DNA of 62,774 nt, counting the filler. It is 4 parts of 4 records of this genome, joined end to end, with 100 filler letters (N's around TTAATTAATTAA, not from the genome) between each part and the next. Parts side by side here need not be neighbours in the genome. Positions count along the whole stretch, not along the records: positions 21,656 to 41,107 come from DRR378314_1746; 3 more parts are not named here. One strand, given 5' to 3'. Positions 22,159 through 40,478 of the stretch are shown here, piece after piece. The first letter of the stretch is position 1. Each line of letters begins with the position of its first letter. The position numbers were made by a program, and so were the translations under genes. The notes under the pieces are model-generated. The model did not search any database, was not told the DNA's origin, and saw only the letters and a list, made by a program, of their open reading frames with translations.

Positions 22159-22183
22159 AAATGTAACCGAAATAGTCACATTT
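22159..22183. promoter_or_regulatory. Inverted repeat upstream of paaA, candidate paa repressor operator
   Basis: AAATGTAAC-N7-GTCACATTT (8/9 match) in an AT-rich patch about 100 nt upstream of the paaA start. Confidence 0.5.
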
Positions 22184-24182: not shown

Positions 24183-24400
24183 CACGCGTTGCTTCGACCG
24201 GACGAGAGGCTGGAGACGCCGTCGTCCTGGCGCGCAACTGCCCGGCCGATGCGTGTCTGTCTCGTGACTGATCGGTCCCACAATCAGGCCGTCGTGCCAC
24301 GGTGTCCGCCTGCGCGGTCTTCTGGCCATCCCCTTGCGGCCTGAGTTGCCAAGCCTGTCCTTGCTGCCGTAAGCAGGCACACAGGCAACAGGAGACGGGC

Positions 24401-25051
24401 ATGGCCGGGCAGACGGAGACGCTGATTGCAGCGATCCTCGAGGATATCGACGCCGGGCGGTTGGCGCCGGGACAGGAGATTGACGAGGCGGTGCTGGCCA
24501 GCCGCCATGGCGTGTCGCGCACGCCGATCCGCGAGGCCTATATCCAGCTCGAAGCCTTCGGCCTGATCCGCCGCCTGCCGCGCAAGGGGGCGGTGTTGTT
24601 CAAGCCGACGCTGGAGGAGTTCCTCGCCATCCAAGAGGTGCATGCGCAGCTGGAAGGGCAGGCGGCAGGACTGGCGGCGCGGCGCATTTCGCCTGTGTTG
24701 CGCGCCCGGCTGGAGGCGGCTGTGACCGCCTGCGAGGCGCATGCGGCGGCACAGGGCGACAGCGATCCCGACGGCTATTACCAGCTGAACCTTGTGTTTC
24801 ACGAAACCGTGGCGCTGGGCGCGGCCAATCCGTTTCTGGTCGAAATGATCAAGACCAATGCCCGCAAGCTGATGGCCTATTATCGCGCCCGCTACCGCTA
24901 TCCCGGCGCCATTGCGCAATCGGCGCAAGAGCACCGCGAGATCGCGGCGCTGATCCTGTCGCATGACCGCGATCGTGCCGAGGCCGCGATGCAGGCGCAT
25001 GTGCTGTTCGATCAGGTCACGGTGATGGATCTGCTGGCAGCCCTTGGTTAG
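24401..25051 (+). CDS. GntR family regulator (FCD domain)
   Basis: GVSRTPIREA HTH and an FCD domain (NLVFH, EHREI). AGGAG RBS. Confidence 0.9.
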   Translation: MAGQTETLIAAILEDIDAGRLAPGQEIDEAVLASRHGVSRTPIREAYIQLEAFGLIRRLPRKGAVLFKPTLEEFLAIQEVHAQLEGQAAGLAARRISPVLRARLEAAVTACEAHAAAQGDSDPDGYYQLNLVFHETVALGAANPFLVEMIKTNARKLMAYYRARYRYPGAIAQSAQEHREIAALILSHDRDRAEAAMQAHVLFDQVTVMDLLAALG

Positions 25052-25758
25052 CCGGCGCGCGCAACTTCGAAAAACCGTGCGATGGCTTCTGCCAGTGCGG
25101 GCTGGTCGACCTTCTGCTTCAAGCTCTCCTGCGCGCGGGCGTAGACCTCGGGACCCATGTCCTGCCGCAGCTCCTCGGTCAGCGCGCAGATGAAGTCATG
25201 GGTCATTTCCGGATGGTGCTGGGTGGTGGCGATATTGCGCCCCAGCGTAAAGCCGGTGCCGTGCCCGTCGCGGGTCATCAACGGGTCGGCCCCCTCCGGC
25301 AATTCGTGCACATATTCCACGTGAGAGCCGTAGATTGAGACCACATCCGGCAGCTCAGCTGCCCACTCCGGGCGCGCGATCAGGTGATTCTCCGTGCGGC
25401 CATGCACCCAGCCGTCGGGCAGATCGTCGACGCGTCCGCCCAGGGCGAGGGCAATCGCCTGATGGCCAAAACAGGCTCCGAACAGCGGAATCTTGCGATC
25501 ATGGATCTGCCGGATCAGCGCCAGCAGCCGGTCCACCCAGGGCGCGCCAGAGCGGGTGGAGGCGGGGCTGCCAGTGATCATCACCCCGTCATAACGGCTT
25601 ATATCTTCAGGAAAAATATCGTCCTTCACCGCGAAGACATCACAGGACCAGTGGGGCCGCGCCATCTGCACCAGCGCGGTGAACTTTGCGCCATCCTTCG
25701 GGTGCCTGTGTGCAAAGGCGCTGTCGTCCGTATTGGTCATCAAAATCGCAATGCGCAT
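25048..25758 (-). CDS. Class I glutamine amidotransferase-like hydrolase (probable gamma-glutamyl-amide hydrolase)
   Basis: ITGSPAS, nucleophile GACFGHQ and His-Glu in QHHPE. Confidence 0.88.
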   Translation of the reverse strand: MRIAILMTNTDDSAFAHRHPKDGAKFTALVQMARPHWSCDVFAVKDDIFPEDISRYDGVMITGSPASTRSGAPWVDRLLALIRQIHDRKIPLFGACFGHQAIALALGGRVDDLPDGWVHGRTENHLIARPEWAAELPDVVSIYGSHVEYVHELPEGADPLMTRDGHGTGFTLGRNIATTQHHPEMTHDFICALTEELRQDMGPEVYARAQESLKQKVDQPALAEAIARFFEVARAG

Positions 25759-25831
25759 GTTCAGGCTTCCCATATGCATATTTACAGTGCTTAATAGTAT
25801 ACATGTGAAGCAAGCCAAAGGAAGCCCCGCC

Positions 25832-27091
25832 ATGACGATCTGGACCCCGACCGATGATGGGCACGCGGACCTGTCGAGCCATGACGCCTTTGCCAGCGGT
25901 GCGCCGCATAACACCTTTGCCCGGCTGCGCCGCGAGGATCCACTGCACTGGACCGAATATGCGGACGGGCAGAATTTCTGGTCGGTCACGCGCTATGACG
26001 ACATCACCAGAATGAACAAGAACACGGAGGTGTTTTCCTCGGCGCGCGGCATTCGCATGGAAGACCAGACCTATGAGGAATACCTCGCCCGGCGTACGTT
26101 TCAGGAAACCGATCCGCCCGATCATGCGCAGGTGCGGATGAAACTCCTGAAGGCGTTTTCAAAGACCACCATGGCGCAATATGAGGACGACATTCGCGCC
26201 CTCTGCGCCGAAATTTTGGACGCGGCGCTGGCAAAGGGCAGCTTTGACGCCACCAAGGAGATCGCCCGGCAATTGCCGATGCGGATGCTGGGGCGCGTGG
26301 TGGGTCTGCCGGACGCCGATCTGCCGTGGCTGGTGGAAAAAGGTGATGCGTTGATCGCCAATACCGACCCGGATTTCACTTCGCATGTGCTGGACAAGAT
26401 GGACACGGATGAATTCCGAATGATGCCCTTCAACTCTCCTGCGGGGGCAGAATTATACATCTATGCCAAGGAGTTGATGGAAGCGAAGGAAAAGGCCGGC
26501 GACACCTCGGGCGTGCTCAACATGATCCTGCAGCCAGCCCGCGACGGCTCGGTCATTACCGAGACCGAGTTTCGCAATTTCTTCTGCCTGCTGGTGGCGG
26601 CGGGCAATGACACCACCCGCTATTCCATCGCGGCTGGCATTCAGGCGATGTGCCATCAGCCGGCGCTGCTGGCGCAGATGCAGGCGGGCGGCGATGTCTG
26701 GGAGACGGCGGCGGATGAGATCATCCGCTGGGCCACGCCCGCGCTCTACTTCCGCCGCACCGCGACGCAGGATGTGGAGATGCACGGCAAGATGATCCGC
26801 GAGGGCGACAAGCTGCTCTACTGGTTCATCTCCGCCAATCGCGACGACAGCTATTTTGACGACCCGTTCCGGGTGAACCTGATGCGCAATCCCAACCGGC
26901 ATCTGTCCTTTGGCCAGTTCGGCCCGCATGTCTGCCTTGGCATGTGGCTGGCGCGGCTGGAGGTCACCGTTTTGTTTCAAGAGCTTGCCAAGCGGATCAA
27001 GTCCATCGAGCCAGCCGGTGCCCATAAATTCCTGCGCTCGAATTTCGTCGGCGGCATCAAGGAATTGCCGGTTCGGGTGGAAGCCGCGTAG
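25832..27091 (+). CDS. Cytochrome P450
   Basis: DPPDH, I-helix AAGNDTT, ExxR (EIIR) and heme ligand FGQFGPHVCLG. Confidence 0.95.
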   Translation: MTIWTPTDDGHADLSSHDAFASGAPHNTFARLRREDPLHWTEYADGQNFWSVTRYDDITRMNKNTEVFSSARGIRMEDQTYEEYLARRTFQETDPPDHAQVRMKLLKAFSKTTMAQYEDDIRALCAEILDAALAKGSFDATKEIARQLPMRMLGRVVGLPDADLPWLVEKGDALIANTDPDFTSHVLDKMDTDEFRMMPFNSPAGAELYIYAKELMEAKEKAGDTSGVLNMILQPARDGSVITETEFRNFFCLLVAAGNDTTRYSIAAGIQAMCHQPALLAQMQAGGDVWETAADEIIRWATPALYFRRTATQDVEMHGKMIREGDKLLYWFISANRDDSYFDDPFRVNLMRNPNRHLSFGQFGPHVCLGMWLARLEVTVLFQELAKRIKSIEPAGAHKFLRSNFVGGIKELPVRVEAA

Positions 27092-27257
27092 GCTCAACAA
27101 AAGACCCGTTCGGGCGGTCGCCCGGACAGCGCCCGACCTCCCCCACGGAAGGGCGCATCGCACCCACCCGAGGTCGGCCACTGCCCTCTGTTGGGACCCA
27201 ATCTGGGCCAAGACGCACGCCAAAGATGCGCAGGCCGCCAACAGGAAAGGAAGCCAA

Positions 27258-28547
27258 ATGAAAACCCGCCTGCGTGCGCTTTTCTGCGACCATCTCAGTA
27301 TCATGCGCGGAAAATACCTGCCGCATTCCAAGATCGGCGACGATGACACCCGGTTCTGCCGCTCCGTCTTTGGAACGCACTACGACCGCGATCTGCTGGA
27401 TGCGCCGGGGTCGATGGTGAAACAGGGCCTGCCGGATATGGAGCTGCGCTGGCGCGGCGAGGAGATCCGCGACAGCTGGCATGCCTCGACCAAGATTGTG
27501 CTGGGCGATCTCTATGACGATGCGGGCGAGCGGCTCACGCTGTGTCCGCGGGGCGCGTTGAAGCGCGCGGTGGCGGGCTGGCAGGCCAGGGGGCTCAACC
27601 CCAAGGTGGGGATCGAGCTGGAAGCCTTTGCCCTGCAGCCGGACGACTATGGCCGGTTGGTGCCCTATGACGCGCCGGGCGGCGTGGTCTATGGCACCGG
27701 ACCGTTTGCGGACCCGTTGCGGTTCAATGACCGGATCTGGGCGATGGCGGATGAGATGGGGTTCTCGCTCGACATGATCACCGCCGAGTTCGACAGCCCG
27801 CAGTTCGAATATACGCTGACCTTCGATGATGCGGTGAAGGCGGTCGATGACATCGTGCTGTTCCGTCTGATGGCGCGGGAGATTGCGTTGGAGTATGGCA
27901 TCGTGCTGACCTTCATGCCCAAGCCGGTGGCGCAGGCGGGCGGGTCCGGCATGCATGTGAACTTGTCGTTCACCGATGAGGTCGGCGGCAATGCGCTGTC
28001 GTCCGGGCCGCGCGGCGGGCCGGAGCACATGAATGATCTGGCGCGCGGCTGTCTTGCCGGGTTTCTGCATCACCACAAGGGCTTGGCCGGTCTGATCGCC
28101 CCCACCGCCAACAGCTACATGCGGTTGCAGCCGGGCAGCCTGTCGGGCTTCTGGCAGAACTGGGGTGGCGATCATCGCAACGTCACCACGCGGATCAGCT
28201 CCGAAGGCGGCGCCAAGGCGCGGCTGGAGCACCGGATGGCGGATGCCTCGTCGAACCCCTACACCACGGTGGCCGCGCTGTTGCAGGCGGCGCTTCTTGG
28301 GGTGGATCAGGGCTATGCGCTGGGGCCGATGGAGACTGGCGACGGGTTTGATCGCACGGATACCCGCGAAAGCACCGCAATGACGCTGAAGGGCGCGGTG
28401 GCGGATCTGGAGAAGGACGTCGCGCTGACACAGGCCGTGGGGCCTGATCTGATCGCCAACCACGTCTATATGAAGCAGAAAGAGGTCCGCAAAACCCGCG
28501 ATCTGGAAGGGGATGCGCTGCGCGATTTTTACGTACATTTCGTCTGA
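27258..28547 (+). CDS. Glutamine synthetase-like gamma-glutamylamide ligase (PuuA/IpuC type)
   Basis: GIELE, EFDSPQFE, TFMPKP, GSGMHVN and LEHR. The GS flap GYEAP is replaced by GSLSG. Confidence 0.88.
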   Translation: MKTRLRALFCDHLSIMRGKYLPHSKIGDDDTRFCRSVFGTHYDRDLLDAPGSMVKQGLPDMELRWRGEEIRDSWHASTKIVLGDLYDDAGERLTLCPRGALKRAVAGWQARGLNPKVGIELEAFALQPDDYGRLVPYDAPGGVVYGTGPFADPLRFNDRIWAMADEMGFSLDMITAEFDSPQFEYTLTFDDAVKAVDDIVLFRLMAREIALEYGIVLTFMPKPVAQAGGSGMHVNLSFTDEVGGNALSSGPRGGPEHMNDLARGCLAGFLHHHKGLAGLIAPTANSYMRLQPGSLSGFWQNWGGDHRNVTTRISSEGGAKARLEHRMADASSNPYTTVAALLQAALLGVDQGYALGPMETGDGFDRTDTRESTAMTLKGAVADLEKDVALTQAVGPDLIANHVYMKQKEVRKTRDLEGDALRDFYVHFV

Positions 28548-28672
28548 CGGATTGTCTGAACTGAGACACAGATAGTGGCTCTTGCGCAGGCCCATCGCGG
28601 CCTGCGCTTGCTTTTTCTCGCGCGGCAGCGCCAGAGTGTCGGCACAATCAACTCAGGCGAAATGAGCAGAAC

Positions 28673-29419
28673 ATGTCTGATACAGAAGTGGCGTCGACAG
28701 CGATGACGTCAGATGCAGCCCCGCTGGTGACGCGAGAGGTCGCAGCCACATGCCTTGGCGTGAAGGTGCCGCAGTCTCCCTTCTTGACCGAGACGCGGAT
28801 CGAACGGATCAACGCGGCGCGCTATGAGGGCCAGGAGATCGCCGGAGCTCTGCATGTGGTGCGTGAAGACGACCGGGTGCTGGAGGTCGGCGCGGGCCTT
28901 GGTGTGGTGGGTGCGGTGATCGCGATGAATGCCAGGCCCGAGAAAGTGCTGTCCTTCGAGGCCAATCCGGAGCTGGTGCCGGTGATCACGGCCCTGCACG
29001 AGATGAACGAGCTGGGCGGTCGGGTGGAGCTGCGCAATCAGGTGCTTTTTGCCGGGGCGGACCGCCCAGAGACGATGGAATTCCACTTGCGCAACAGCTT
29101 TCTGGGTTCTTCACTGCTGAACGAGGGGGGGCGTCCCTCGCGGGTGGTTGAGATCCCGACCGTGGATCTGGCCGAGGTGGTGGCAGAGCTACAACCGACC
29201 GTGCTGGTGATGGATATCGAGGGCGGCGAGCTGGCGCTTCTGGAGGCGATGGACCTCAGCCCCTTCCGCGCCATCGTGATCGAATTCCACCCGGAGGCCT
29301 ATGAGGTCAAGGGCATGCGACGCTGCAAGACCATCCTGCGCGAGGGTGGTTTTCAGAAGGTCGAAGACGTCTCCAGCCGCACTGTCTGGACCTGCACTCG
29401 CGAAGGAGCGCCGACCTGA
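28673..29419 (+). CDS. FkbM family SAM-dependent methyltransferase
   Basis: VLEVGAGLG, FEANP, VMDIEGGE and IEFH motifs. Confidence 0.85.
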   Translation: MSDTEVASTAMTSDAAPLVTREVAATCLGVKVPQSPFLTETRIERINAARYEGQEIAGALHVVREDDRVLEVGAGLGVVGAVIAMNARPEKVLSFEANPELVPVITALHEMNELGGRVELRNQVLFAGADRPETMEFHLRNSFLGSSLLNEGGRPSRVVEIPTVDLAEVVAELQPTVLVMDIEGGELALLEAMDLSPFRAIVIEFHPEAYEVKGMRRCKTILREGGFQKVEDVSSRTVWTCTREGAPT

Positions 29420-29463
29420 GCCGCATACGCAACCGCGCCGCGCCAGCGGCGCTACCGAAAGAT

Positions 29464-29537
29464 GCGCGCCCGAAGCCAAAGGCTTCGGGCGCGCCATGGT
29501 ATCCGGTGGCCTCCGCGCCCCAATGGGGCACGGAGGC
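29464..29537. repeat. Two GC-rich hairpins between convergent genes (REP-like or terminator)
   Basis: Perfect 14-bp stem GCGCGCCCGAAGCC-AAA-GGCTTCGGGCGCGC (29464-29494) and a 12/13-bp stem at 29509-29537. Confidence 0.7.
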
Positions 29538-29557
29538 GGTGGCGCCCGGACGCCGTG

Positions 29558-30925
29558 TCAGCTCACCGCCGCAAAGCCTGCATCAAGCGCCGAGAGGATC
29601 TGGCTCACATCCGCCTCGGTCAGCACCAGCGGCGGCGACAAGATGATGTTAGGGCCCGAGACCCGCACCATGGCGCCGTTCTGATAGGCGACCTCCTGAA
29701 TGGTGTTGATGGTCTTCTTGTCAATGGCGGCCTTGGTGGCACGGTCGCTGACCAGCTCCAGCGCATTCATCAGCCCATGGCCACCGCGCACGTCGCCGAT
29801 CAGGCCGTAACGTTCCTGTAGTGCCGCCAGCCCCTGATGCACCTGTGCACCGCGCGCCGCCGCATTTGTGGGCACATCGAGCCGTTTGGTCTCCGCCAGA
29901 CAGGCCAGCGCCGCCGCCGCCCCGACCGGGTGGCCTGAATAGGTGTAACCATGGCCGATGGCGGCCTTGCCACTCTCATCCTTTTCAAACACCTCGACCA
30001 GACGTTCGGAGATCATCAGCGCGCCGAAGGGGAAATAGCCGTTGGTGATCGCTTTCGCCGTGCACATCATGTCCGGCTGCACGCCCCAGTGCCGCGACCC
30101 GCTCCAGGAGCCACAACGGCCAAAGGCGGTGATGACCTCGTCGGCGATCAGCAGGATACCATGCTTGCGGCAGACCTCGGCCACTCCGGGCATGAAGCTC
30201 TCATGCGGCGGGATCACGCCCCCGGCGCCAAGGATCGGCTCCATGATGAAGGCCGCAATCGTGCCGGCGCCCTGAAAGGCGATCTCATCCTCAAGCGCGG
30301 ACAGACAGAGCTGCGCCAGCCGCTCCGGGTCGGTCTCGTTGAAGGGGTTGCGATAGGTATAGGGCGCCGGGATGTGGTGGCATCCCGCCAGCAGCGGCTC
30401 ATAGGCGGTGCGGAAATTGGCGTTACCATTCACCGAGGCGCCGCCAAAATGGGTGCCGTGATAGCCTTTCTTCAGGCTCAGGTATTTCACCCGCGACGGC
30501 TCCCCGCGAACCTTGTGATACTGCCGCGCCAGCCGCAGGGCGGTTTCCACCGAATCGGATCCGCCGGAGGTGAAGAACGCGCGGCTGAGACCGTCGGGCG
30601 CGAAAAAGTCTCGTAGCTCTTCGGCCAGCTGGATGACCTGATCGTTGGTGGTGCCGCGAAAGATCGAATAATAGGGCAGCACATCCAGCTGCGCGGCGAT
30701 CGCGTCCTTCACCGGCTGGCAGGAAAACCCGAGGTTTACGTTCCACAGGCCGCCCACGGCGTCGACCACCTCATGCCCGTCCACATCCTTGATGCGCACG
30801 CCGGAGGCGCCGGTCACGATGGTCGGCGGGTTGGCGAGGCTGTCGCCGGGATGGGCCATCGGGTGCCACAGGCTGCGGGCGTTGTGTTCTTTGAGGAAAT
30901 TGGCGTCGGGCTGATGTGCGGTCAT
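29558..30925 (-). CDS. Class III PLP-dependent (omega-amino acid) aminotransferase
   Basis: GGLWNVNLG, SGGSDSVE, YHGTH, IADEVITAFGR and the PLP lysine in TAKAIT. Confidence 0.93.
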   Translation of the reverse strand: MTAHQPDANFLKEHNARSLWHPMAHPGDSLANPPTIVTGASGVRIKDVDGHEVVDAVGGLWNVNLGFSCQPVKDAIAAQLDVLPYYSIFRGTTNDQVIQLAEELRDFFAPDGLSRAFFTSGGSDSVETALRLARQYHKVRGEPSRVKYLSLKKGYHGTHFGGASVNGNANFRTAYEPLLAGCHHIPAPYTYRNPFNETDPERLAQLCLSALEDEIAFQGAGTIAAFIMEPILGAGGVIPPHESFMPGVAEVCRKHGILLIADEVITAFGRCGSWSGSRHWGVQPDMMCTAKAITNGYFPFGALMISERLVEVFEKDESGKAAIGHGYTYSGHPVGAAAALACLAETKRLDVPTNAAARGAQVHQGLAALQERYGLIGDVRGGHGLMNALELVSDRATKAAIDKKTINTIQEVAYQNGAMVRVSGPNIILSPPLVLTEADVSQILSALDAGFAAVS

Positions 30926-30954
30926 GGGGCAGACTCCTTGTCGCGGCGCGGCCC

Positions 30955-31734
30955 TCAGGCCGCGATGTCGGTGGGAAACTCGGGCGGGCAGGCGCCGCCG
31001 ATACGTTCGGTAAGGGCCAGACCGGCCAGACGCAGGGCGCGGGGAATGGCGGTTTTCTGATCGTCGCTCATGCGGGAGGTCGGCGCGGCCACCGCCAGCG
31101 CCCCCAGCACCACTTGGTCCGGGCCAAAAATTGGCACCGCGTGGGAATGCACCTCCGCCTCGTAGCCGCCGATGGATTGCGCCAGCCCGCTGCGCTGGAC
31201 CGCTGCCAGCTCGGCGCGGATGGCGACCGGGTCGGTTTGGGTCTGGGCGGTGCGCGCCTCCAGTGGTTGCGCCAGCACGGCGTCGACAAAGCTCGGGTCG
31301 GCAAAGGCCAGCACCGCAAGGCCGGAGGCGGTGCCGTGGAAGGTCAGCACCTCGGCGTCCTCCATCATCACCTTGGTGGCATTGCGCGGCGCATAGGCGT
31401 GGCTGAGGGACGCGAGCTGGTCCCCCTGCAACAGCGACAGGTGGGTAGTCTCGCCGGTTTCCTCGGACAATTCCCGCAGCACCCGGCGCGAGGCCGACAG
31501 AATCGGCACGCTGGCCTCGCGCAGTGCTGCCAGCCGCAACACCTGCGGGCCAAGGCGGTAGGCCCGGTCGCCATCGACCTGTTCGACGAATCCCGTCGCC
31601 TGCAATTCGCTCATCAGCCGATAGACCGTCGCCTTGTTCATGCCCGACAGACGCGTGAGGTCGCTCAGCCCGATTACCAGCCGCCCGTGGTTGAAATGGG
31701 TCAGCAAATTCAGTGCTTTGGAGACGGTTCCCAT
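30955..31734 (-). CDS. IclR family transcriptional regulator
   Basis: TVSKALNLL, KATVYRL HTH, ETGETTHL and HGTASG. Confidence 0.92.
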   Translation of the reverse strand: MGTVSKALNLLTHFNHGRLVIGLSDLTRLSGMNKATVYRLMSELQATGFVEQVDGDRAYRLGPQVLRLAALREASVPILSASRRVLRELSEETGETTHLSLLQGDQLASLSHAYAPRNATKVMMEDAEVLTFHGTASGLAVLAFADPSFVDAVLAQPLEARTAQTQTDPVAIRAELAAVQRSGLAQSIGGYEAEVHSHAVPIFGPDQVVLGALAVAAPTSRMSDDQKTAIPRALRLAGLALTERIGGACPPEFPTDIAA

Positions 31735-31808
31735 GGGTGGTCGCAATCCTGATCTGCCAGATTTCTCAGCGCCACTGACCCCGAGTGGAGGGCGCTCTTT
31801 CATTTTTG

Positions 31809-31869
31809 TTGACAGATTGACCCCATGGCTGTCAATCTAAATTCAAACCAGAGGTTCGAATAATGAACC
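31809..31869. promoter_or_regulatory. Cluster of inverted repeats in the iclR/tctC divergent promoter
   Basis: AGATTGAC-N9-GTCAATCT (31814-31838), ATTCAAACC-N3-GGTTCGAAT (31841-31861) and GGTTC-N7-GAACC (31853-31869). TTGACA at 31809. Confidence 0.55.
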
Positions 31870-31962
31870 GACAGCGACGACCACAAGCGAAGATCAACCG
31901 AGCGGCGGACAACGTCGCCATTTGACCAACGGCAACTTGAATGGCGAACAGGGAGACAGCCA

Positions 31963-32907
31963 ATGACCGTGACATCTGTACTCAAGGGATGTGTGGCCGC
32001 AGCGGGCCTTGCACTGACAGCGGGAGCCGCTCTGGCGGAGTATCCCGAAAAACCTGTGAACTTCATCGTGCCCTGGCCGCCCGGCGATCTTGAGGACGTG
32101 CTGACCCGGATGATCGCCGAGGATTTCCAGGAGGAATACGGCGTCGCTGCCGCGGTGGTGAACAAGCCCGGCGGCGGTGGCGGGCCTTTCCCCGGTGCCA
32201 TCGAGGTCGCCAATGCGCCGGCCGATGGCTATACCGTGGGCTCCTTCGTGATCGGCGTGCCGGTGATGGGCCACCAGATCGACATTCCGCCGCTGACGCC
32301 GGAAAAATTCGACCCGCTTGGCATTTTCCTGACCTATCCCTTCGTGATCGCGACCTCGGGCGATGCGCCCTATTCCTCGATGGAGGAGCTGGCAGCGCAT
32401 GCGCAGGACAATGACGTGGTGTTGGGCCATTTCGGCGATGTGCTGACGCCGACGCAGGTCACCAAGGCCTATGCCAAATCGGCAGGCTTTGAATGGGGCG
32501 CGGATGCTGCCTTTGACGCACTGGACTGCAATACGCTGGCGTCGGGCGATGCGGATGTGATCAACACCACGCTGCAGCTGATCCTGCCCTGTCTGGACGA
32601 TGTGAAAGTGCTGGTCTCCATCACCGACACGCGCATCCCGCTGGTGCCCGACGCGCCGACCATTGGCGAATTGAATCCGGATCTGGACATCGCGCTGTGG
32701 AATGGCCTGTTCGTGTCCAAGGACACGCCGCAGGATGTGCGCGACAAGATCGTCGCCGTGGCGCAGAAGACCGTGATGAGCGACCGCGCGCAGGCGGTGG
32801 CGGCGGAAACCGGCGCGTTGGTCTACTGGCAGGATGCGGACACCAGCACCGCCCGCGTGGCCAATGACATCGAGACGATGGCGCGGATCAGTACCGCGCT
32901 GGAGTAA
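31963..32907 (+). CDS. tctC: Tripartite tricarboxylate transporter substrate-binding protein (TctC/Bug)
   Basis: Signal peptide, YPEKPVNFIVPWPPG, VVNKPGGGG, APADGYT and PDAPTIGE. Confidence 0.9.
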   Translation: MTVTSVLKGCVAAAGLALTAGAALAEYPEKPVNFIVPWPPGDLEDVLTRMIAEDFQEEYGVAAAVVNKPGGGGGPFPGAIEVANAPADGYTVGSFVIGVPVMGHQIDIPPLTPEKFDPLGIFLTYPFVIATSGDAPYSSMEELAAHAQDNDVVLGHFGDVLTPTQVTKAYAKSAGFEWGADAAFDALDCNTLASGDADVINTTLQLILPCLDDVKVLVSITDTRIPLVPDAPTIGELNPDLDIALWNGLFVSKDTPQDVRDKIVAVAQKTVMSDRAQAVAAETGALVYWQDADTSTARVANDIETMARISTALE

Positions 32908-32920
32908 CCTCCCCGAGCCT

Positions 32921-32957
32921 TCCGCCGGTGCCATCCCGCATGGTCCGGCGGATTTTT
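32921..32957 (+). terminator. Terminator-like or mRNA-stabilising hairpin after tctC
   Basis: TCCGCCGG...CCGGCGGA stem with an inner CCAT/ATGG pairing, followed by TTTTT. Confidence 0.6.
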
Positions 32958-33011
32958 CGGCCTCATCTTCTGCAGACCTCTGCCCTCACACCTTCCCAGC
33001 CAGAGACCCCA

Positions 33012-33542
33012 ATGCAAAGCGAACGTGAACGCAGATTTGCCGGCCCGCGCCGGGGACAGCTCTTGTTTGTGCTGTCGTTCCTGACCCTGTCGGTGCTGCT
33101 GTTGTCCCAGATCACTCAGCAGACGGCTTGGGTGAACAAGACCGGCCTTTTTGCCCAGCCCCGCTTCTGGCCCGCGGTGGGTGTCGGCGGCATGGTCGTT
33201 TGCACCGCGCTGCACCTGTGGCGGCTGCCGTTCCGCCGTATCGAGCGCGCCGACCTGCGCGAGGCGCTGCGCTGGGTGGCCGCGCTGGAATACGCGCTGT
33301 GGTTCATGGTCTACGTGATGCTGGTGCCGCTGATCGGCTACCTTCCGATGACGCTGATCTTCGTGCCGCTGCTGGCCTGGCGGATGGGCTATCGCAGCCC
33401 GCAGATGATGGCGATCAGCGCCGGGTTTGCGGTGTTTATCGTCCTGTTCTTCAAGGGCGTTCTGGCGGTGCGTATCCCCGGGGCGGTGCTCTATGATTAT
33501 CTGCCGGATGCCTGGCGCAGCTTTGCCATCCTCTATCTCTGA
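33012..33542 (+). CDS. tctB: Tripartite tricarboxylate transporter small membrane subunit (TctB)
   Basis: Four to five TM segments, PRFWP and FKGVLAVRIPG. Lies between tctC and tctA. Confidence 0.82.
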   Translation: MQSERERRFAGPRRGQLLFVLSFLTLSVLLLSQITQQTAWVNKTGLFAQPRFWPAVGVGGMVVCTALHLWRLPFRRIERADLREALRWVAALEYALWFMVYVMLVPLIGYLPMTLIFVPLLAWRMGYRSPQMMAISAGFAVFIVLFFKGVLAVRIPGAVLYDYLPDAWRSFAILYL

Positions 33543-33569
33543 GACTTTTTCCAAGGAAGACGCGCGCGC

Positions 33570-35189
33570 ATGGACCTGATCCTTTCTGCCCTCGACATCC
33601 TGATGCGCTGGGACGTGGCGCTGGCACTGCTGGCGGGGTCGGTCGGCGGCGTGCTGATCGGGGCGATCCCCGGTGTCGGCCCGGCGGTTGCCATCGCGAT
33701 CCTGCTGCCCGCGACCTTCTCGCTTGATCCCATCGTGGGGCTGACGGTGCTGTTGGGCATCTATGGCTCGTCGATGTATGGCGGTGCGATCCCGGCGATC
33801 CTGATCAACACCCCCGGCACCGCCGTCAATGCGCTGACCACCTATGACGGCTATCCGATGACCGCCCGGGGCGAGCCGCGCCGCGCCCTCAGTCTGGCCT
33901 ATTCCGCCAGCTTCTTTGGCGGCGTGTTCTCGGTGATCTGCTTGATCCTGTTTGCGCCCGTGCTGGCGAAAATTGCGCCGCTGTTTGGCGCGCGGGAGAT
34001 CTTCCTCGCCGCGCTGTTGGGTCTGCTGTTGGTGGTGGTGGCCCATCGCGGACAGGCGCTGATCGCGGGGGCGCTGGCCTGCCTCGGGATCTTTCTCAAC
34101 ACCATCGGCATGGAGCCGGTGAAATACACCCAACGCTACACATTCGGAACGGATGCGCTTGGGTCGGGCATCAACCTCATCGTGGTGGTGCTGGGGCTAT
34201 TTGCGATCTCGCAGGCCTTTGTGCTGCTGACCGATGAGGACGAGAAAATCCGCCTCACCAAACTGCGCGGCGGCATGTTCCAAGGTCTGCGCGAGCTGGC
34301 GCGCCACCCACGCGTGGCGACGGTTTCGGCGGGCTTTGGCGTTGTCATGGGCATGCTCCCCGGTGTGGGCGAGTTCACCGCGCAGTTCATGTCTTACACC
34401 TACGCGCAGAAATCCTCGAAACGGCCGCAGGATTTTGGCAATGGCTCTTCCGAGGGGCTGATCGCCGCCGAGACCGCCAACAACGCCGTGCCCGCCGCCG
34501 CCATGGTGCCGCTTCTGGCGCTTGGCATCCCGGGTGAGGCGCTGACGGCGATGATGCTGTCGGTCTTTTACGTGCACAACGTGGTGCCGGGGCCGGGGCT
34601 GTTCCAGAACCAGATGGATTTTGTCGTCGCGCTTTATCTGGCGCTGCTGATCCTCAATGTGCTGGTGCTGATCTTCCTGCTCGGGGCGACCAAATCGCTG
34701 ATTCAGGTGGTGCGCATCCCAAACCGGTTTCTCGGCGTTGGCATCCTGACCCTCAGCTTTGTGGGCGTTTACTCCCTGCGGAACTCTGCCACCGACTGTT
34801 TCATGGCGGCAGGCTTTGGCCTCTTTGGCTTCGTGCTGAAGCGCCTGCAGCTGCCTGCGGTGCCGATCATCCTCGGCATGGTGCTGGGCGGCATCATGGA
34901 GGTGAAGCTGCGCGCGGCCATGGCGCGGGTGAAGACGCCCTTTGATTTCATTGATCGCCCGGTGGCGTTCATCCTGTTTTCCATCATCATCATCGTGCTT
35001 GCGACGCATGTCCTGCGCATCCGCAGGGAAGCGCGCGAGCTGAAGGAGGCCGAATGGCAGACCAAGACCGCATCAACACGCTTCGGCGCACTGCTATTGC
35101 GCCGCAGAACCTCTTTCTTGAAGGAGCATGGACGCAAGGTGAGGGCGCGCCATGCGAAGTTGCTTCGCCGATTGACGGATCTGTTCTGA
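33570..35189 (+). CDS. tctA: Tripartite tricarboxylate transporter large permease (TctA)
   Basis: GAIPGVG, YGGAIPAILINTPG, AAETANNA and LGIPG. The C-terminus overlaps the next gene by 136 nt. Confidence 0.92.
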   Translation: MDLILSALDILMRWDVALALLAGSVGGVLIGAIPGVGPAVAIAILLPATFSLDPIVGLTVLLGIYGSSMYGGAIPAILINTPGTAVNALTTYDGYPMTARGEPRRALSLAYSASFFGGVFSVICLILFAPVLAKIAPLFGAREIFLAALLGLLLVVVAHRGQALIAGALACLGIFLNTIGMEPVKYTQRYTFGTDALGSGINLIVVVLGLFAISQAFVLLTDEDEKIRLTKLRGGMFQGLRELARHPRVATVSAGFGVVMGMLPGVGEFTAQFMSYTYAQKSSKRPQDFGNGSSEGLIAAETANNAVPAAAMVPLLALGIPGEALTAMMLSVFYVHNVVPGPGLFQNQMDFVVALYLALLILNVLVLIFLLGATKSLIQVVRIPNRFLGVGILTLSFVGVYSLRNSATDCFMAAGFGLFGFVLKRLQLPAVPIILGMVLGGIMEVKLRAAMARVKTPFDFIDRPVAFILFSIIIIVLATHVLRIRREARELKEAEWQTKTASTRFGALLLRRRTSFLKEHGRKVRARHAKLLRRLTDLF

Positions 35190-36538
35190 CCACATTGGCC
35201 ACGGCCACGGCAGCCGATGTGGATCGCGCTGTGGCCTCCGGGCGGCGCGCGTTCGAGGATGGCCGCTGGTCAGGGCTGGCTCCGGCGGCGCGTAAGAAAG
35301 TGCTGCACCGGATCGCCGACAGGATCGAGGCCGAGGCGCTGGCGCTCACCGTTCTGGGCGTGCGCGACAATGGCACCGAATTCAACATGGCGCTGAAGGC
35401 CGAGGCGGGATCGGCGGCGGGGACCTTCCGCTACTACGCCGAAGCGCTGGACAAGGTAGCGGGCGAGGTGGCGCCCACGGCCCCGGACGTGCTGGGGTTG
35501 GTGCAGACCGCGCCGGTAGGGGTGGTCGGCGCCATTGTGCCATGGAATTTTCCGCTGATGATCGGCGCGTGGAAGCTGGCGCCGGCTCTGGCGATGGGCA
35601 ATTCCGTGGTGCTGAAACCGGCAGAGACCGCGTCGCTGTCGCTGCTTCGGCTGGCAGAGATCTGTTCGGAATGCGGCCTGCCCGATGGGGTGCTGAATGT
35701 GGTGACCGGCCCCGGTGCCGTGACCGGCGCGGCGCTGTCAGAGCACATGGATGTGGATGTCCTGGTCTTCACCGGCTCTGGTGCCACGGGGCGACGCTTG
35801 CTGGAGGCCTCGGCGCGTTCGAACCTGAAACGCTGCTATCTGGAGCTGGGGGGCAAGTCGCCCAACATCGTCTTTGCGGATGCCAAGGATCTGGATCACG
35901 CGGCCAAGGTCTCGGCCATGGGGATCTTTCGCAACTCCGGCCAGGTCTGTGTGGCGGGCTCGCGCCTGCTGGTCGAGGCGTCGATCCACGATGAGTTTGT
36001 GGCGCGGGTTGTCGAACATGCCGAGGCGCTGAAGGTCGGCGATCCGCTGGATCTGGGCAGTCAGGTCGGGGCGGTGAATTCCGAAACCCAGCTGGCAGCG
36101 AACCTCGATCACGTGGCGCGCGCCGTGACCGAGGGCGGCGATGTGTGCTGTGGCGGCGGGCGTATTCTGGCGGAGACCGGCGGCACCTATATGGCGCCAA
36201 CGGTGGTGACAGGCGTGCGCGAACAGTCGAGCCTGTTCCAGCGCGAGGTCTTCGGGCCGGTTCTGTCGGTGACGGGTTTTGACGGCGAAGAGGAGGCGCT
36301 GCGGCTGGCCAATGCCACCGACTATGGCCTCGCCGCCGGGGTCTGGACGCAGGATCTGTCGCGGGCGCATCGCTGTGTCGCGGGCATTCGGGCGGGCGTG
36401 GTGCATGTGAACACCTATGGCGGGGCCGACAATACGGTGCCCTTGGGCGGGGTTGGTCAGTCCGGCAATGGGCACGACAAATCCCTGCATGCGCTGGAGA
36501 AATACGTCGATCTGAAAACCGCCTGGATACAGCTGTGA
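35054..36538 (+). CDS. Aldehyde dehydrogenase (PuuC-like)
   Basis: IVPWNFP, FTGS, LELGGKSP, catalytic GQVC and EVFGPV. AAGGAGG RBS at 35043-35049. Confidence 0.94.
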   Translation: MADQDRINTLRRTAIAPQNLFLEGAWTQGEGAPCEVASPIDGSVLTTLATATAADVDRAVASGRRAFEDGRWSGLAPAARKKVLHRIADRIEAEALALTVLGVRDNGTEFNMALKAEAGSAAGTFRYYAEALDKVAGEVAPTAPDVLGLVQTAPVGVVGAIVPWNFPLMIGAWKLAPALAMGNSVVLKPAETASLSLLRLAEICSECGLPDGVLNVVTGPGAVTGAALSEHMDVDVLVFTGSGATGRRLLEASARSNLKRCYLELGGKSPNIVFADAKDLDHAAKVSAMGIFRNSGQVCVAGSRLLVEASIHDEFVARVVEHAEALKVGDPLDLGSQVGAVNSETQLAANLDHVARAVTEGGDVCCGGGRILAETGGTYMAPTVVTGVREQSSLFQREVFGPVLSVTGFDGEEEALRLANATDYGLAAGVWTQDLSRAHRCVAGIRAGVVHVNTYGGADNTVPLGGVGQSGNGHDKSLHALEKYVDLKTAWIQL

Positions 36539-36573
36539 CGGGAGCGCGATCCTAGCTGCGCGAGGACCGCGCG

Positions 36574-36605
36574 GCCTCCGGCGGAGGTATTTGAAAAAGA
36601 TGAAG
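36574..36605 (+). repeat. Rhodobacteraceae-type short intergenic repeat
   Basis: GCCTCCGGCGGAGGTATTT-N5-AGATGAAG. A related CTCCCCCGAGACATTT-N6-AGATGAAG occurs at 21-50. Confidence 0.5.
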
Positions 36606-36638
36606 ACGGGCGCGGGAGGCGCCCGAGGGGAGGATGAG

Positions 36639-37871
36639 ATGAGCGGTGAAAAGACGATCCTTGTGGCCGGGACCTGGGACACCAAGGATGATGAGCTGTC
36701 CTATCTGTCGGAGGTGATCCGGGGACAGGGTGGTCAGGTGCTCAGCATGGATGTGAGTGTATTGGGCGACCCCAAGGTGCCGACGGATGTGTCAAAACAT
36801 GAGGTGGCGGATGCGGCGGGCAGCTCCATTCAGGCCGCCATCGACAGCGGGGATGAAAACACCGCGATGCAGATCATGGGGGCGGGCGCGGCCCGGCTGG
36901 CGTTTGACCTGTGGCGCGCGGGGCGCATCCATGGTGTGATCGTGCTGGGCGGGACCATGGGCACCGATCTGGCGCTGGACCTATGTGGTGCGCTGCCGTT
37001 GGGGGTGCCGAAATATGTGGTCTCGACGGTGGCGTTTTCACCGCTTCTGCCGCCGGAGCGGATCCCGGCCGATGTGCAGATGATCCTCTGGGCCGGGGGG
37101 CTTTATGGGCTCAACGACATTTGCAAGGCCTCGCTCAGCCAGGCGGCGGGGGCCGTGCTTGGTGCGGCGCGCGCGGTGGAGGCACCGCGGTTCGAGCGGC
37201 CGATGGTGGGGATGACCTCCTTTGGCAAGACGGTGCTGAGCTACATGGTGACACTGAAGCCGGAGCTGGAAGCACGCGGCTTTGATGTGGCGGTGTTTCA
37301 TGCCACCGGCATGGGCGGACGGGCCTTCGAGAGCCTCGCGGGCGCGGGGGCCTTTGCTGCGGTGATGGATTTTGCACCGCAGGAGGTGAGCAACCATCTG
37401 TTTGGCGGTCTATCGGCGGGCGAGGGGCGGATGACCCATGCGGGCAAGGTTGGCGTGCCGCAGATGGTGGCGCCGGGCTGTTATGATCTGGTGGATTTTG
37501 TCTGCTGGCAGGAGCTGCCTGCTGCATTGCAGGGACGGGAGTGTCATGCGCACAACCGTTTGCTGACCGCGGCCATGCTTGAGGCGGGGGAGCGGCGCAC
37601 GGTGGCGCGCGAGATCTGTGAAAAGCTGGCAGGTGCGACGGGGCCGGTTGCGTTTTTCCTGCCCACCGGGGGCTGCAACGAATGGGATCGGGCTGGCGGA
37701 GAGTTGCATGATGCGGAGGGGCTTGCCGCATTCTGTGACGAGATGCGCCGCGCTGTGCCGGAGACGGTCGAGTTGCAGGAGCTGCCCTGTCACATCAATG
37801 ACAGGGACTTTTGCGAGGCGGTGCTGGCGCAGTTCGACGCCTGGTTGGCGGCTGGCGTGATCTCCCGGTAA
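36639..37871 (+). CDS. Tm-1-like ATP-binding domain protein (UPF0261)
   Basis: GTWDTK, GGTMGT, LPLGVPKYVVST, VFHATGMGGRA and CHINDRDF. Confidence 0.9.
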   Translation: MSGEKTILVAGTWDTKDDELSYLSEVIRGQGGQVLSMDVSVLGDPKVPTDVSKHEVADAAGSSIQAAIDSGDENTAMQIMGAGAARLAFDLWRAGRIHGVIVLGGTMGTDLALDLCGALPLGVPKYVVSTVAFSPLLPPERIPADVQMILWAGGLYGLNDICKASLSQAAGAVLGAARAVEAPRFERPMVGMTSFGKTVLSYMVTLKPELEARGFDVAVFHATGMGGRAFESLAGAGAFAAVMDFAPQEVSNHLFGGLSAGEGRMTHAGKVGVPQMVAPGCYDLVDFVCWQELPAALQGRECHAHNRLLTAAMLEAGERRTVAREICEKLAGATGPVAFFLPTGGCNEWDRAGGELHDAEGLAAFCDEMRRAVPETVELQELPCHINDRDFCEAVLAQFDAWLAAGVISR

Positions 37872-38008
37872 GGGCAGGAGCGCCCGGTCTGGCCATAGAG
37901 GCCACACCGGGCGCGATGTCTTCCCCAATGGGAAGACATCAGGGGCTGGACCTTGCAGGTGGGCTGGGCAACAGTCCCGCCGTGTTTCCGCCATTGAAGG
38001 ACGCCGTG

Positions 38009-38434
38009 ATGGCATTTGATCCAGAGCCGCAAGACCCCCGCCATCGTCTGATATCCGATCCCGGCTGCCAGCAGCTTGTGGGTTACGACACGCGCTTCGA
38101 TGCCACCGGGGCCTGCAGGGTGACGCTGGAGGTGGGGGCACAGCATCTCAATCGCCATGGCATCCTGCATGGCGGTATGGTGGCGACGGTGATGGATGTG
38201 GTCTGCGGCAACACTGCGGCGCAATATTTCGATCCTGAGGGGCACGCGGCAGTGGTGACGGTGGCGCTGAACCTCTCCTACATTGCGGCGACAGGGCCGG
38301 GTCCGGTGACCGCTACCGCCGAGGCGACAGGGGGCGGCAAAAACACCGCCCATGTGACGGGAGAGCTGAAGGATGCCGAAGGGCAGTTGTTAGCAACGGC
38401 AACGGGGATCTTCCGCCGGATCCGCAAGCGTTGA
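38009..38434 (+). CDS. PaaI family hotdog thioesterase
   Basis: HLNRHGILHGG, VMDVVCG and LNLSYI motifs. Confidence 0.88.
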   Translation: MAFDPEPQDPRHRLISDPGCQQLVGYDTRFDATGACRVTLEVGAQHLNRHGILHGGMVATVMDVVCGNTAAQYFDPEGHAAVVTVALNLSYIAATGPGPVTATAEATGGGKNTAHVTGELKDAEGQLLATATGIFRRIRKR

Positions 38435-38584
38435 TGCGCCGGGCCGGATGGCCCGGCGCCCGGCCCAACGGGGCGGCAGGCATTTTTAATGCAGGCCGGA
38501 CGGGCGGGAGCCTCCCCCCCCCCGGCGGGTCAGGCTTGATTGGCCTTTCTCAGTCTGCGGTCAGGACGCGGTTCAGGACACAGT

Positions 38585-39268
38585 TCAGGATCCGGTCGCG
38601 GCGGCGCGGATGTTGCGGATGTTGTCGCCATAGACCTGCGGCGTGTCGACGGAGCCGCCGCGGAACACCGCAGAGCCCGCCACCAGCACATCTGCGCCCG
38701 CCTCGGCCACCAGCGGCGCGGTGGTGGTGTCGACGCCCCCGTCGATCTCGATATGCACCGGGCGGTCGCCGATCATCTGGCGCAGGGCGCGCACCTTGCC
38801 GGTCATGTCGATGAACTTCTGACCGCCAAAGCCCGGGTTCACCGTCATCACACAGATGAGGTCGGTGAGATCCAGAAGATGCGCCACTGCCTCGGCCGGG
38901 GTGCCGGGGTTAAGCGCCACGCCTGCCTTCATGCCGGCACCGCGAATGGCCTGCAGGGTGCGGTGAATATGCGGGCCGGCCTCCACATGGGCGGTGAGCA
39001 CATCTGCCCCTGCTTCGGCATAGGCATCGATATAAGGATCGACCGGCGCGATCATCAGGTGCACGTCCATCACGGTCTTCACATGCGGACGGAACGCTTT
39101 CACCGCGGCCGGGCCAAAGGTGAGGTTGGGCACAAAATGCCCGTCCATCACATCCACATGCACCCAGTCGGCGCCCTGGGCCTCGATGGCTTGGATCTCC
39201 TGGCCGAAATTGGCGAAATCCGCCGACAGGATGGACGGGGCAATCTTGATGGAACGGTCAAAGGTCAT
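38585..39268 (-). CDS. rpe: Ribulose-phosphate 3-epimerase
   Basis: [32 protein letters not shown] and IEIDGG. Confidence 0.97.
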
Positions 39269-39510
39269 CGGCGGGGATCCTTGGCAGGGGAGCAGGGAGG
39301 TGTGAGTCTGTAAAAACTGCGCGCGGTATAGCGCCTAGGGCCGCTGCTGCACAGGGTGAGTCTGCGCCCGCCCGAGCGGATGACCCAGAGCCCCGCGCCA
39401 TCCACGCGATAGAAATGCGGAGCAATGGGGCCAGATGCGCGGCAGGGAAGGCTGGAGGCGCGGATGCGGCTGTCGCCGAGATCTTACCGCTGTGTCACGA
39501 AAATCGGGGC

Positions 39511-39541
39511 AAGTTACAAAAGTTTTATATCGATGACACAA
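39511..39541 (+). promoter_or_regulatory. Putative Pho box upstream of phnC
   Basis: GTTAC (39513), TTTAT (39524) and GACAC (39535) recur at 11-bp spacing with A/T-rich spacers, resembling PhoB GTCAT/C direct repeats. Confidence 0.5.
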
Positions 39542-39591
39542 ATGATTTGGTGATCATGCGTAGGCAGTCGCGGAACCAAAGGGGGCCGCAC

Positions 39592-40410: not shown

Positions 40411-40478
40411 CCCTGACCCCTTTCATCATCCCGGGGCCAGTATGGTGTCGGGCCAACCCACAACCGGAGTATTCCACG

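Follow-up and report, generated by a model that had tools for sequence, protein, structure and literature searches.

A conserved ligase, cytochrome P450 and hydrolase gene cluster of marine roseobacters with a possible role in arylethylamine catabolism through gamma-glutamylated intermediates

A stretch of assembled DNA of 62,774 nucleotides (the window) carries, wholly on the second of its four contigs (DRR378314_1746; positions 21656-41107, 19.5 kb), a gene cluster built around a ligase that resembles glutamine synthetase (GS), a cytochrome P450 and a divergently oriented hydrolase, accompanied by a second block that encodes a class III transaminase, a tripartite tricarboxylate transporter (TTT), an aldehyde dehydrogenase (ALDH) and a UPF0261 (Tm-1-like) protein. 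The gene content, active-site patterns, conservation and gene associations described here are read directly from the sequences. We propose that the two blocks form a two-operon catabolic unit that would work through gamma-glutamylated intermediates and lead an arylethylamine into Hpa or Paa catabolism, a proposal drawn from sequence comparisons for which we consider the chances of being right and of being wrong to be balanced. A preliminary description of the same DNA, made from the sequence alone, had suggested a general scheme of glutamylation, P450 oxidation, deglutamylation, aldehyde oxidation and transamination, and the analysis supports that scheme.

The ligase differs from ordinary glutamine synthetase

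The ligase was compared by alignment with the E. coli enzymes GlnA and PuuA, the Ipu-like ligase of Pseudarthrobacter and four orthologs, with GS residue positions in E. coli numbering that were checked on the E. coli sequence. Residues E129, E131, E212, E220, G265, H269, R321, R339, R344, E357 and R359 are all retained, and the metal, ATP and glutamate residues are kept in the four orthologs also. The ammonium site is replaced at all four of its positions (D50C, S53V, Y179V and E327L); the preliminary description had noted GSLSG in place of GYEAP, and this reading holds in the alignment with GlnA. Further changes are H271N and the substitution of Phe for the adenylylation residue Tyr397. PuuA and the Ipu-like ligase carry replacements of the same kind. 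Since the catalytic residues of GS are retained and the ammonium site is lost, as in PuuA, the ligase is, judged by its residues, no ordinary GS, in agreement with the preliminary description.

Profile and pairwise comparisons place the protein at some distance from the enzymes compared. It scores 156.8 bits with the NCBIfam GlnA model (TIGR00653; cut-off 429.15), 178 bits with type III GS (cut-off 470) and 159.9 bits with gamma-glutamylputrescine synthetase (cut-off 650), and it falls under the cut-off of every NCBIfam model. Pairwise, it is 31% identical to PuuA and 26% to the Ipu-like ligase, and it scores 83.6 bits with NpaA1 (8WWU), 92 with PA5508, 113 with GmaS and 126 with GS, so that it stands roughly equidistant (25-31% identity) from the characterised enzymes compared. 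The ESM Atlas returns only clusters labelled 'glutamine synthetase family'. A 'GoaS' class of gamma-glutamyl organic-amide synthetases is proposed in PMC11335346, and because the catalytic core is retained, the ammonium site is lost and identity to characterised enzymes is low, the ligase would fit this class as a separate lineage.

Public records name the orthologs 'glutamine synthetase' or 'type I glutamate--ammonia ligase', and a passage of PMC9938194 gives the Ruegeria pomeroyi ortholog SPO0765 as the GS of GS-GOGAT, with no test of it reported there. SPO0765 (P0123) is in the cluster of P0045, which has 84% identity, and in the literature we found it as a predicted small RNA target and as 'GS' in a proteome discussion, and nothing else. 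The annotations thus favour an ordinary enzyme of ammonium assimilation. The replacement of the whole ammonium site and of Tyr397, a GlnA score far under the cut-off and the consistent pairing with P450 and hydrolase genes make that explanation very improbable, and on its sequence SPO0765 would not be the glutamine synthetase of the cell.

Conservation of the two blocks

Searches of one genome per species returned 130 relatives of the ligase, from which the best 80 loci (76-99% identity) were retained; these are mostly from roseobacters, with Oricola and Ahrensia in addition. Counts of downstream genes refer to the 68 of these loci that have at least 9.5 kb of downstream sequence. The hydrolase gene is divergent and lies 5′ of the P450 gene in all 80 loci, and the P450 gene, present in 78 (74-97% identity), is adjacent to the ligase gene on one strand in 78. 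This core arrangement is far from chance. The transaminase, TctC, TctA, ALDH and UPF0261 genes are all present within 10 kb in 47 of the 68 loci, and none of the five is present in nine. No locus contains a linked alcohol dehydrogenase, PuuD-type hydrolase or PuuB-type oxidase gene.

A second sample, of one genome per genus (201 genomes), contains 34 orthologs at 62-85% identity and, at 46-50%, 11 members of a separate sister group. The four sister-clade loci examined all have the genes for TctB, TctA, TctC, hydrolase, P450 and ligase on one strand, in the order (IclR, transaminase or ALDH), TctB-TctA-TctC-hydrolase-P450-ligase, then UPF0261 or further genes. Because two differing gene orders retain the same partners, gene order provides good evidence that the two blocks are a functional unit, and because they are interleaved in a single sister-clade operon they would be expected to work together. 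The supposition in the preliminary description that these genes belong together is thus upheld by synteny in both clades.

Contigs from relatives in a seawater RNA-Seq run, mostly at less than 95% identity, cover the GntR, P450, ligase, FkbM, transaminase and IclR genes (24300-33500), and one 3.2-kb piece from the same run spans the ligase 3′ end to IclR. These contigs are no proof of transcription or of operon structure, because the library may contain DNA.

Hydrolase, P450, electron supply and regulators

The hydrolase contains a GxCxGxQ-type nucleophile motif and an HPE motif, corresponding to the Cys-His-Glu triad of class I amidotransferases, and it is a candidate gamma-glutamyl-amide hydrolase. 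It lies outside the C26/PuuD family, and its match to PuuD is 26% identity over 76 amino acids only. Across the 80 loci its identity is 43-97% (median 57%), and the medians for the ligase and the P450 are 86% and 85%.

The translated P450 has a heme Cys loop, an I-helix AGxDTT and an ExxR, which supply the heme-thiolate loop, acid-alcohol pair and ExxR that serve as P450 signature motifs. It matches 308 solved P450 chains at E ≤ 1e-20, the nearest being a CYP125 ancestor (309 bits), followed by CYP126, 268, 124, 153 and 108. It would oxidise the glutamylated amine. As to its electron supply, a gene for a 2Fe-2S ferredoxin lies directly 3′ of the ligase gene in 41 of the 80 loci and is absent from the window and from the Tritonibacter-like loci (L009-L017), in which, as in the window, an FkbM gene occupies the place of the ferredoxin. 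T. scottomollicae has a single ferredoxin homolog, which shows 45% identity and is encoded away from the cluster. The FkbM gene occurs in 20 of the 68 loci with enough flanking sequence and is a variable accessory.

Two regulators accompany the blocks. In the intergenic region between hydrolase and P450 genes, two boxes, one TTTACATATTTA-like and the other TAAT/ATACA, are kept in at least 60-90% of an alignment of 76 distinct sequences from several genera and look like a promoter overlapping a GntR operator. The GntR gene itself is present in 74 of the 80 loci (71 of the 75 with at least 3.5 kb upstream), and its product probably represses both arms of the divergent pair, the hydrolase gene and the P450-ligase genes. 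The IclR gene, found in 54 of the 68 loci, is predicted to encode the regulator of the transporter/ALDH/kinase operon.

The second block

The transaminase scores 742 bits with NF005683 (cut-off 575), and its nearest solved relatives are omega-transaminases (444 and 419 bits), with putrescine and polyamine:pyruvate transaminases also among them. A role as a phospho-lyase paired with the kinase, in an amino-alcohol module, was considered and is not supported: transaminases, a caprolactam racemase and similar enzymes make up its best 60 solved relatives, and no phospho-lyase is among them. The TctC, TctB and TctA genes are consecutive and all three Pfam families score above cut-off, giving a complete TTT. 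The best NCBIfam match of the ALDH is PuuC (518.6 bits, under the cut-off of 850), followed by HpaE (424) and phenylacetaldehyde dehydrogenase (411), and it is 49% identical to E. coli PuuC.

The UPF0261 protein scores 652 bits with NF002676 (cut-off 556) and is closer to the aromatic kinase MarK (9MPY; 173 bits) than to Tm-1 (144 bits). PMC12624787 describes MarK (Saro_1862) of Novosphingobium aromaticivorans as a kinase that uses ATP to phosphorylate acetovanillone and related aromatics, the first activity for UPF0261, and one that is activated by an E16K change. The protein in the window has a natural Lys at the corresponding ATP-site position (MarK 16, K20 of Tm-1), and shares three of the seven residues of the MarK acetovanillone pocket (G195, H219 and H304, counted on a HMMER alignment), the others being changed (T196K, F283L, I285D and H348W). 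It is probably an ATP-dependent small-molecule kinase, and the preliminary description of a Tm-1-like protein of unknown role has been overtaken by the characterisation of MarK.

A block of this kind can stand alone, because it occurs in genome G001, in which no DNA match to the ligase or the P450 was found. There (L089, G001:C13, 5178-8059) a paralogous TctBA-ALDH-UPF0261 block has 41-70% amino-acid identity (blastp) and adjoins genes whose N-terminal sequences resemble a luciferase-like monooxygenase and a flavin reductase; the aminotransferase and TctC genes also match this contig at the DNA level, and neither a ligase nor a P450 gene is nearby.

Links to arylethylamine and homoprotocatechuate metabolism

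In sister-clade locus L098 the operon continues on the same strand with a CHM-isomerase-like gene, HpaE (775 bits, cut-off 638), HpaD (385 bits, cut-off 321) and a pyridoxal phosphate-dependent decarboxylase. The decarboxylase is of the aromatic amino acid decarboxylase (AADC) type: it scores 387 bits with DOPA decarboxylase and over 300 with tyrosine and aromatic decarboxylases, and about 110-133 bits with the DABA, CSAD and GAD types. Within 10 kb of the main-clade loci there is an AADC gene in 10 of 80, HpaD in four, HpaE in five, a CHM-isomerase-like gene in six and HpaI in six, with a union of 11 of 80.

The association is also apparent genome-wide in the genus sample, where Fisher tests, which ignore shared ancestry, were applied. 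AADC is present in 30 of the 34 main-clade ligase carriers and in 56 of 167 others (p = 3e-9), and HpaD in 37 of the 45 carriers of both clades (11 of 11 in the sister clade) and in 28 of 156 non-carriers (p = 3e-15). The control, protocatechuate dioxygenase (PcaH), shows no link (25 of 45 carriers, 95 of 156 non-carriers; p = 0.6). The ligase gene is within 8 kb of AADC or HpaD in six of 34 main-clade and three of 11 sister-clade genomes, 16 carriers have AADC and HpaD no more than 3 kb apart, and in T. scottomollicae HpaD adjoins the AADC ortholog at a separate locus.

There are further aromatic associations. The paa genes are upstream in 24 of the 80 loci, and here they are at the contig end. 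HpaB-1 was not found in any of three main-clade genomes tested with the HpaB-1 model, the search being confined to that type of 4-hydroxyphenylacetate hydroxylase; because of this the P450 could be a ring hydroxylase. Since the nearest characterised relative of the UPF0261 protein is an aromatic kinase, this protein also favours an aromatic direction. A gene for an arylsulfatase/PehA-like phosphoric or sulfuric ester hydrolase is located just upstream of GntR in 22 of the 80 loci (e.g. L021, 5316-6962) and near one sister-clade operon (L095, 1292-2938), which hints that the natural input may be sulfated or phosphorylated phenolic amines.

The preliminary description had favoured a piperidine, a pyrrolidine or a generic alkylamine as the substrate. 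The gene neighbourhoods and the genome-wide co-occurrence with AADC and HpaD point instead to arylethylamines that would be led towards homoprotocatechuate.

Proposed pathway and alternatives

Inferred here are which substrate is used, what the P450 does to it, in which sequence the steps run and what the TTT carries. The substrate would be an arylethylamine of the tyramine or dopamine type, possibly phenethylamine too, either taken up as such or formed intracellularly when the DOPA-decarboxylase-like enzyme encoded in these genomes acts on L-tyrosine or L-DOPA. The ligase would mask the amine as a gamma-glutamyl amide, and the P450, with electrons from an unlinked ferredoxin and reductase, would hydroxylate the masked amine, most likely on the ring to the catechol level. 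The hydrolase would then strip the glutamate, the transaminase would convert the amine to an arylacetaldehyde and the ALDH would yield 3,4-dihydroxyphenylacetate (or phenylacetate), for which the HpaD meta-cleavage pathway and the paa pathway, respectively, would be the outlets. A more specific version is possible though rather doubtful: a 'protect, oxidise, deprotect' catecholamine route in marine roseobacters, for tyramine, dopamine and decarboxylated L-DOPA or tyrosine, with the P450 replacing HpaBC-type hydroxylases and the UPF0261 kinase in a second catalytic role that would be new to its family. In such a route the glutamyl mask would keep the free amine from cyclising as the P450 builds or modifies the catechol.

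Several observations weigh against the arylethylamine proposal. There is no hpa or AADC gene in the window or on the cluster contig, adjacency in the main clade is limited to the 11 loci noted above, and the co-occurrence tests take no account of shared ancestry. The nearest solved relatives of the P450 hydroxylate the termini of sterols, lipids and alkanes, not aromatic rings; no ferredoxin gene is present in the window, and a ferredoxin reductase gene is neither in the window nor linked in any of the 80 loci. HpaB-1 is present in two sister-clade genomes, and a FadB-like beta-oxidation gene follows the block in 25 of the 68 loci. TTT binding proteins usually take carboxylates, and arylethylamines have none. 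Finally, because the transaminase and ALDH alone could make the acid from an arylethylamine, a need for glutamylation and the P450 is itself deduced.

The alternative in line with the preliminary description is that an aliphatic or cyclic amine (an alkylamine, piperidine, pyrrolidine, diamine or polyamine) is degraded by an Ipu/Pip-like route, in which glutamylation would be followed by P450 attack at the terminal or alpha carbon, ALDH would give a gamma-glutamyl amino acid, the hydrolase would free an omega-amino acid, and this would be transaminated, oxidised to a dicarboxylate and beta-oxidised. We think such a route unlikely, though it remains a serious competitor: CYP125, 124, 153 and 108, the relatives of the P450, are terminal hydroxylases, the transaminase has putrescine and polyamine:pyruvate enzymes among its relatives, PuuC is the best named match of the ALDH, an omega-amino acid or dicarboxylate would suit a TTT, and in Leisingera and Ruegeria the downstream genes include FadB-like, acyl-CoA dehydrogenase, hydratase and CoA-ligase genes. 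Against it, no aliphatic-amine-specific gene is linked, the specific and phyletic links are to AADC and the homoprotocatechuate pathway with a flat PcaH control, the ligase and P450 have only 26-27% identity to those of the Ipu-like cluster, and the alcohol dehydrogenase or PuuB-type oxidase is missing from every locus.

Two other explanations detach parts of the cluster from one another. Glutamylation might serve to detoxify or trap an amine and not to support growth: the ligase and hydrolase would buffer a catecholamine or arylamine that is reactive, in the manner of the GAT-like partner in the aniline and 1-naphthylamine systems, and the tasks of the P450 and of the adjoining operon would be separate; the hydrolase evolves much faster than the ligase or P450, two regulators imply two separate inducers, and the GAT-like NpaA2 of the 1-naphthylamine system is reported in PMC11335346 to be dispensable and to reverse glutamylation. 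The P450 and ligase genes are nevertheless neighbours on one strand in nearly every locus (78 of 80), and sharing a strand with transporter, transaminase and ring-cleavage genes, as in the sister clade, is the layout of a catabolic operon, so we hold this explanation to be improbable. Equally, the cluster might consist of two unrelated systems side by side, a GntR-controlled ligase/P450/hydrolase unit and an IclR-controlled operon for import, transamination and oxidation of an omega-amino acid or similar carboxylate, as the separate regulators, the free-standing block of G001 and the nine loci whose core lacks any block gene within 10 kb would suggest; adjacency in 47 of 68 loci and interleaving in one co-directional operon in all four sister-clade loci render this quite improbable. 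We retain the arylethylamine proposal as our preferred interpretation.

The cluster contig and its surroundings

True genes were told from antisense open reading frames by GC content at third codon positions (GC3), and their identities were assigned with Pfam and NCBIfam, by which all of the genes listed in the preliminary description are confirmed as present (Table 1). The FkbM gene, the AtuA-like gene, the contig joints and the absence of ferredoxin and reductase genes had gone unmentioned there. The thioesterase, which it had included in the system, is a lineage-specific accessory found in eight of the 68 loci and is not part of the core; the FkbM and AtuA-like genes are likewise restricted to certain lineages. 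The P450 and ligase genes are separated by 166 bases in this stretch. The AtuA-like gene was considered as a pathway member and rejected, as it is present in only 14 of the 80 loci; in L012 it is followed by two open reading frames read, from their N-terminal sequences only, as acyl-CoA carboxylase subunits, and these are absent here.

Table 1. Genes, regulatory region and contig joints in and around the ligase-P450 cluster (window coordinates).
Feature	Position	Strand	Basis or remark
Artificial contig joint	21556-21655	.	44 N + 12-base stop linker + 44 N, read directly; left limit of cluster contig
AtuA-like protein	22374-24182	+	Pfam AtuA, AtuA_ferredoxin; neighbour, probably outside cluster
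GntR/FCD-family regulator	24401-25051	+	Pfam GntR + FCD; start MAGQTE matches relatives
Class I GATase-fold hydrolase, 236 aa	25048-25758	-	Pfam GATase 64.7 bits (cut-off 22.8)
Divergent intergenic region	25759-25831	.	Conserved boxes, 76-sequence alignment
Cytochrome P450, 419 aa	25832-27091	+	Pfam p450 55.9 bits (cut-off 22.8)
GS-like ligase, 429 aa, putative GoaS type	27258-28547	+	Pfam Gln-synt_C 236.9 bits
FkbM-family methyltransferase	28673-29419	+	Pfam, TIGR01444
Class III omega-transaminase (amine or omega-amino acid:pyruvate type)	29558-30925	-	Pfam Aminotran_3; NF005683
IclR-family regulator	30955-31803	-	Pfam HTH_IclR, IclR_C
TctC	31963-32907	+	Pfam above cut-off
TctB	32928-33542	+	Pfam above cut-off
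TctA	33570-35189	+	Pfam above cut-off
NAD(P)-dependent aldehyde dehydrogenase	35054-36538	+	Pfam Aldedh 529 bits
UPF0261 (Tm-1-like) protein	36591-37871	+	Both UPF0261 Pfam domains
PaaI-like hotdog thioesterase	38009 (or 37916)-38434	+	Pfam 4HBT, TIGR00369; start uncertain
Ribulose-phosphate epimerase	after thioesterase	-	
Phosphonate ABC transporter	after ribulose-phosphate epimerase		
Second contig joint	41108-41207	.	Right limit of cluster contig; interrupts phosphonate-binding protein gene
Third contig joint	56268-56367	.	44 N + stop linker + 44 N

The cluster contig begins with a cut paaA/C-like gene and ends with a cut phosphonate-binding protein gene. In a composition scan the GC content rises from 0.55-0.58 to 0.62-0.65 near 22 kb and has a further step near 40 kb. 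A GC-rich island acquired by horizontal transfer was considered and is ruled out because the positions of the steps coincide with the artificial joints, so that they mark contig boundaries; any feature or composition shift spanning the three joints is an artefact.

Over 16.9 kb the cluster contig shares 95.8% identity with Tritonibacter scottomollicae DSM 25328 (L009), reaching 98% at the right end, and a ligase of 98.8% identity is encoded on a 1.26-Mb replicon of T. mobilis. For the rest of the source genome, T. scottomollicae (G002) served as a proxy. The first contig (1-21555) is 98% identical to G001 (G001:C6), a genome that matches the cluster contig in parts only, at 68-80% DNA identity, with its own paa and ribulose-phosphate epimerase (rpe) genes at 80%. 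The assembly may mix two roseobacters or represent a mosaic strain. The first contig also contains, at 11113-18197, genes for two DAO/GCV_T fusion dehydrogenases (dimethylglycine/sarcosine dehydrogenase-like), a homocysteine S-methyltransferase and an AraC regulator, a group that looks like a betaine-type demethylation cluster.

Significance

Of the 201 genera of the family in the sample, 34 have the ligase ortholog, roughly one in six, and another 11 have the sister form; the model species R. pomeroyi is among the carriers. Few genes in its neighbourhood are as well conserved as that of the ligase, and yet it is recorded as glutamine synthetase. If the arylethylamine proposal is correct, the cluster would supply a missing upper pathway joining AADC to homoprotocatechuate cleavage in abundant marine heterotrophs, add a P450-based member to the short list of glutamylation-dependent amine pathways, and give the UPF0261 family a second physiological context. 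Should the doubtful catecholamine version hold, a natural aromatic amine would for the first time be assigned a glutamylation pathway that depends on a P450. The proposal is directly testable in genetically tractable strains.

Comparison with known systems

The cluster is a P450-type variant on the Ipu/Puu/aniline glutamylation theme for which we found no published description. No functional study of it was found in a search of full-text literature, supplementary tables excluded, that included the R. pomeroyi locus tags, and the statement in the preliminary description that no version with a TTT and a Tm-1-like protein was known to it is unchanged.

The closest parallel in logic is the Ipu pathway for isopropylamine in Pseudomonas sp. 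KIE171, in which, according to PMC6776027, the gamma-glutamyl amide formed by a GS-like ligase is hydroxylated by a P450 system, after which the product is set free by a hydrolase of the amidotransferase type. Both systems combine the three enzymes in one locus. Ipu-like clusters are also known from Arthrobacter/Pseudarthrobacter plasmids, and a Pseudarthrobacter one, whose sequences stood in for the KIE171 genes in our comparisons, also includes an ALDH, a class III aminotransferase and a permease. The proteins are nonetheless non-orthologous, at 26% identity for the ligase, 27% for the P450, 35% for the transaminase and 40% for the ALDH. The present cluster has no linked ferredoxin reductase, alcohol dehydrogenase or APC permease, and in the window no ferredoxin; a TTT, UPF0261 and the GntR and IclR regulators are found instead, and the context is aromatic rather than that of small aliphatic amines.

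The E. coli Puu pathway for putrescine follows a similar scheme of glutamylation, oxidation, dehydrogenation, deglutamylation and transamination, and the ligase has lost its ammonium site as PuuA has, with an ALDH close to PuuC. Identity of the ligase to PuuA and its score with the gamma-glutamylputrescine synthetase model (given above) are low, however, no PuuB hit was obtained and the P450 stands in PuuB's place, the hydrolase is of a different family from PuuD, and the transaminase, which belongs with the pyruvate-dependent omega-transaminases, has 26% identity to PuuE.

Glutamylation of aromatic amines is known from the aniline and 1-naphthylamine systems, where the AtdA1/TdnQ/NpaA1 ligase acts before ring oxidation and the GAT-like AtdA2/NpaA2 hydrolyses the amide (as set out in PMC11335346). 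These share the pairing of a ligase with a GAT-like protein and differ in using a Rieske dioxygenase where a P450 is present here, and in a distant ligase (the NpaA1 score above). Moreover, the nitrogen of the proposed arylethylamine is not on the ring, and for this reason it would be removed later by the transaminase and not in the course of dioxygenation.

Pseudomonas degrades tyramine and dopamine with an amine oxidase or dehydrogenase, an aldehyde dehydrogenase and HpaBC, then HpaD. The pathway proposed here would likewise begin with tyramine or dopamine and end with homoprotocatechuate and its cleavage by HpaD, but no amine oxidase is linked here, and a ligase, P450, hydrolase and transaminase would carry out the upper steps.

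Within the roseobacters themselves, amine gamma-glutamylation has a precedent in the ethanolamine pathway of Phaeobacter sp. MED193, described in PMC10132767 as consisting of the EtoXVW TRAP transporter, an ethanolamine gamma-glutamylase, two dehydrogenases and a gamma-glutamylglycine amidohydrolase. That pathway is encoded at a separate locus, has no P450, uses a TRAP transporter and not a TTT, has an RpiR regulator and relies on dehydrogenases for oxidation. Lastly, the UPF0261 protein has in common with MarK the two-domain family, the activating Lys and three pocket residues (G195, H219 and H304), and differs from it at four of seven pocket positions and in a context without acetovanillone carboxylase genes.

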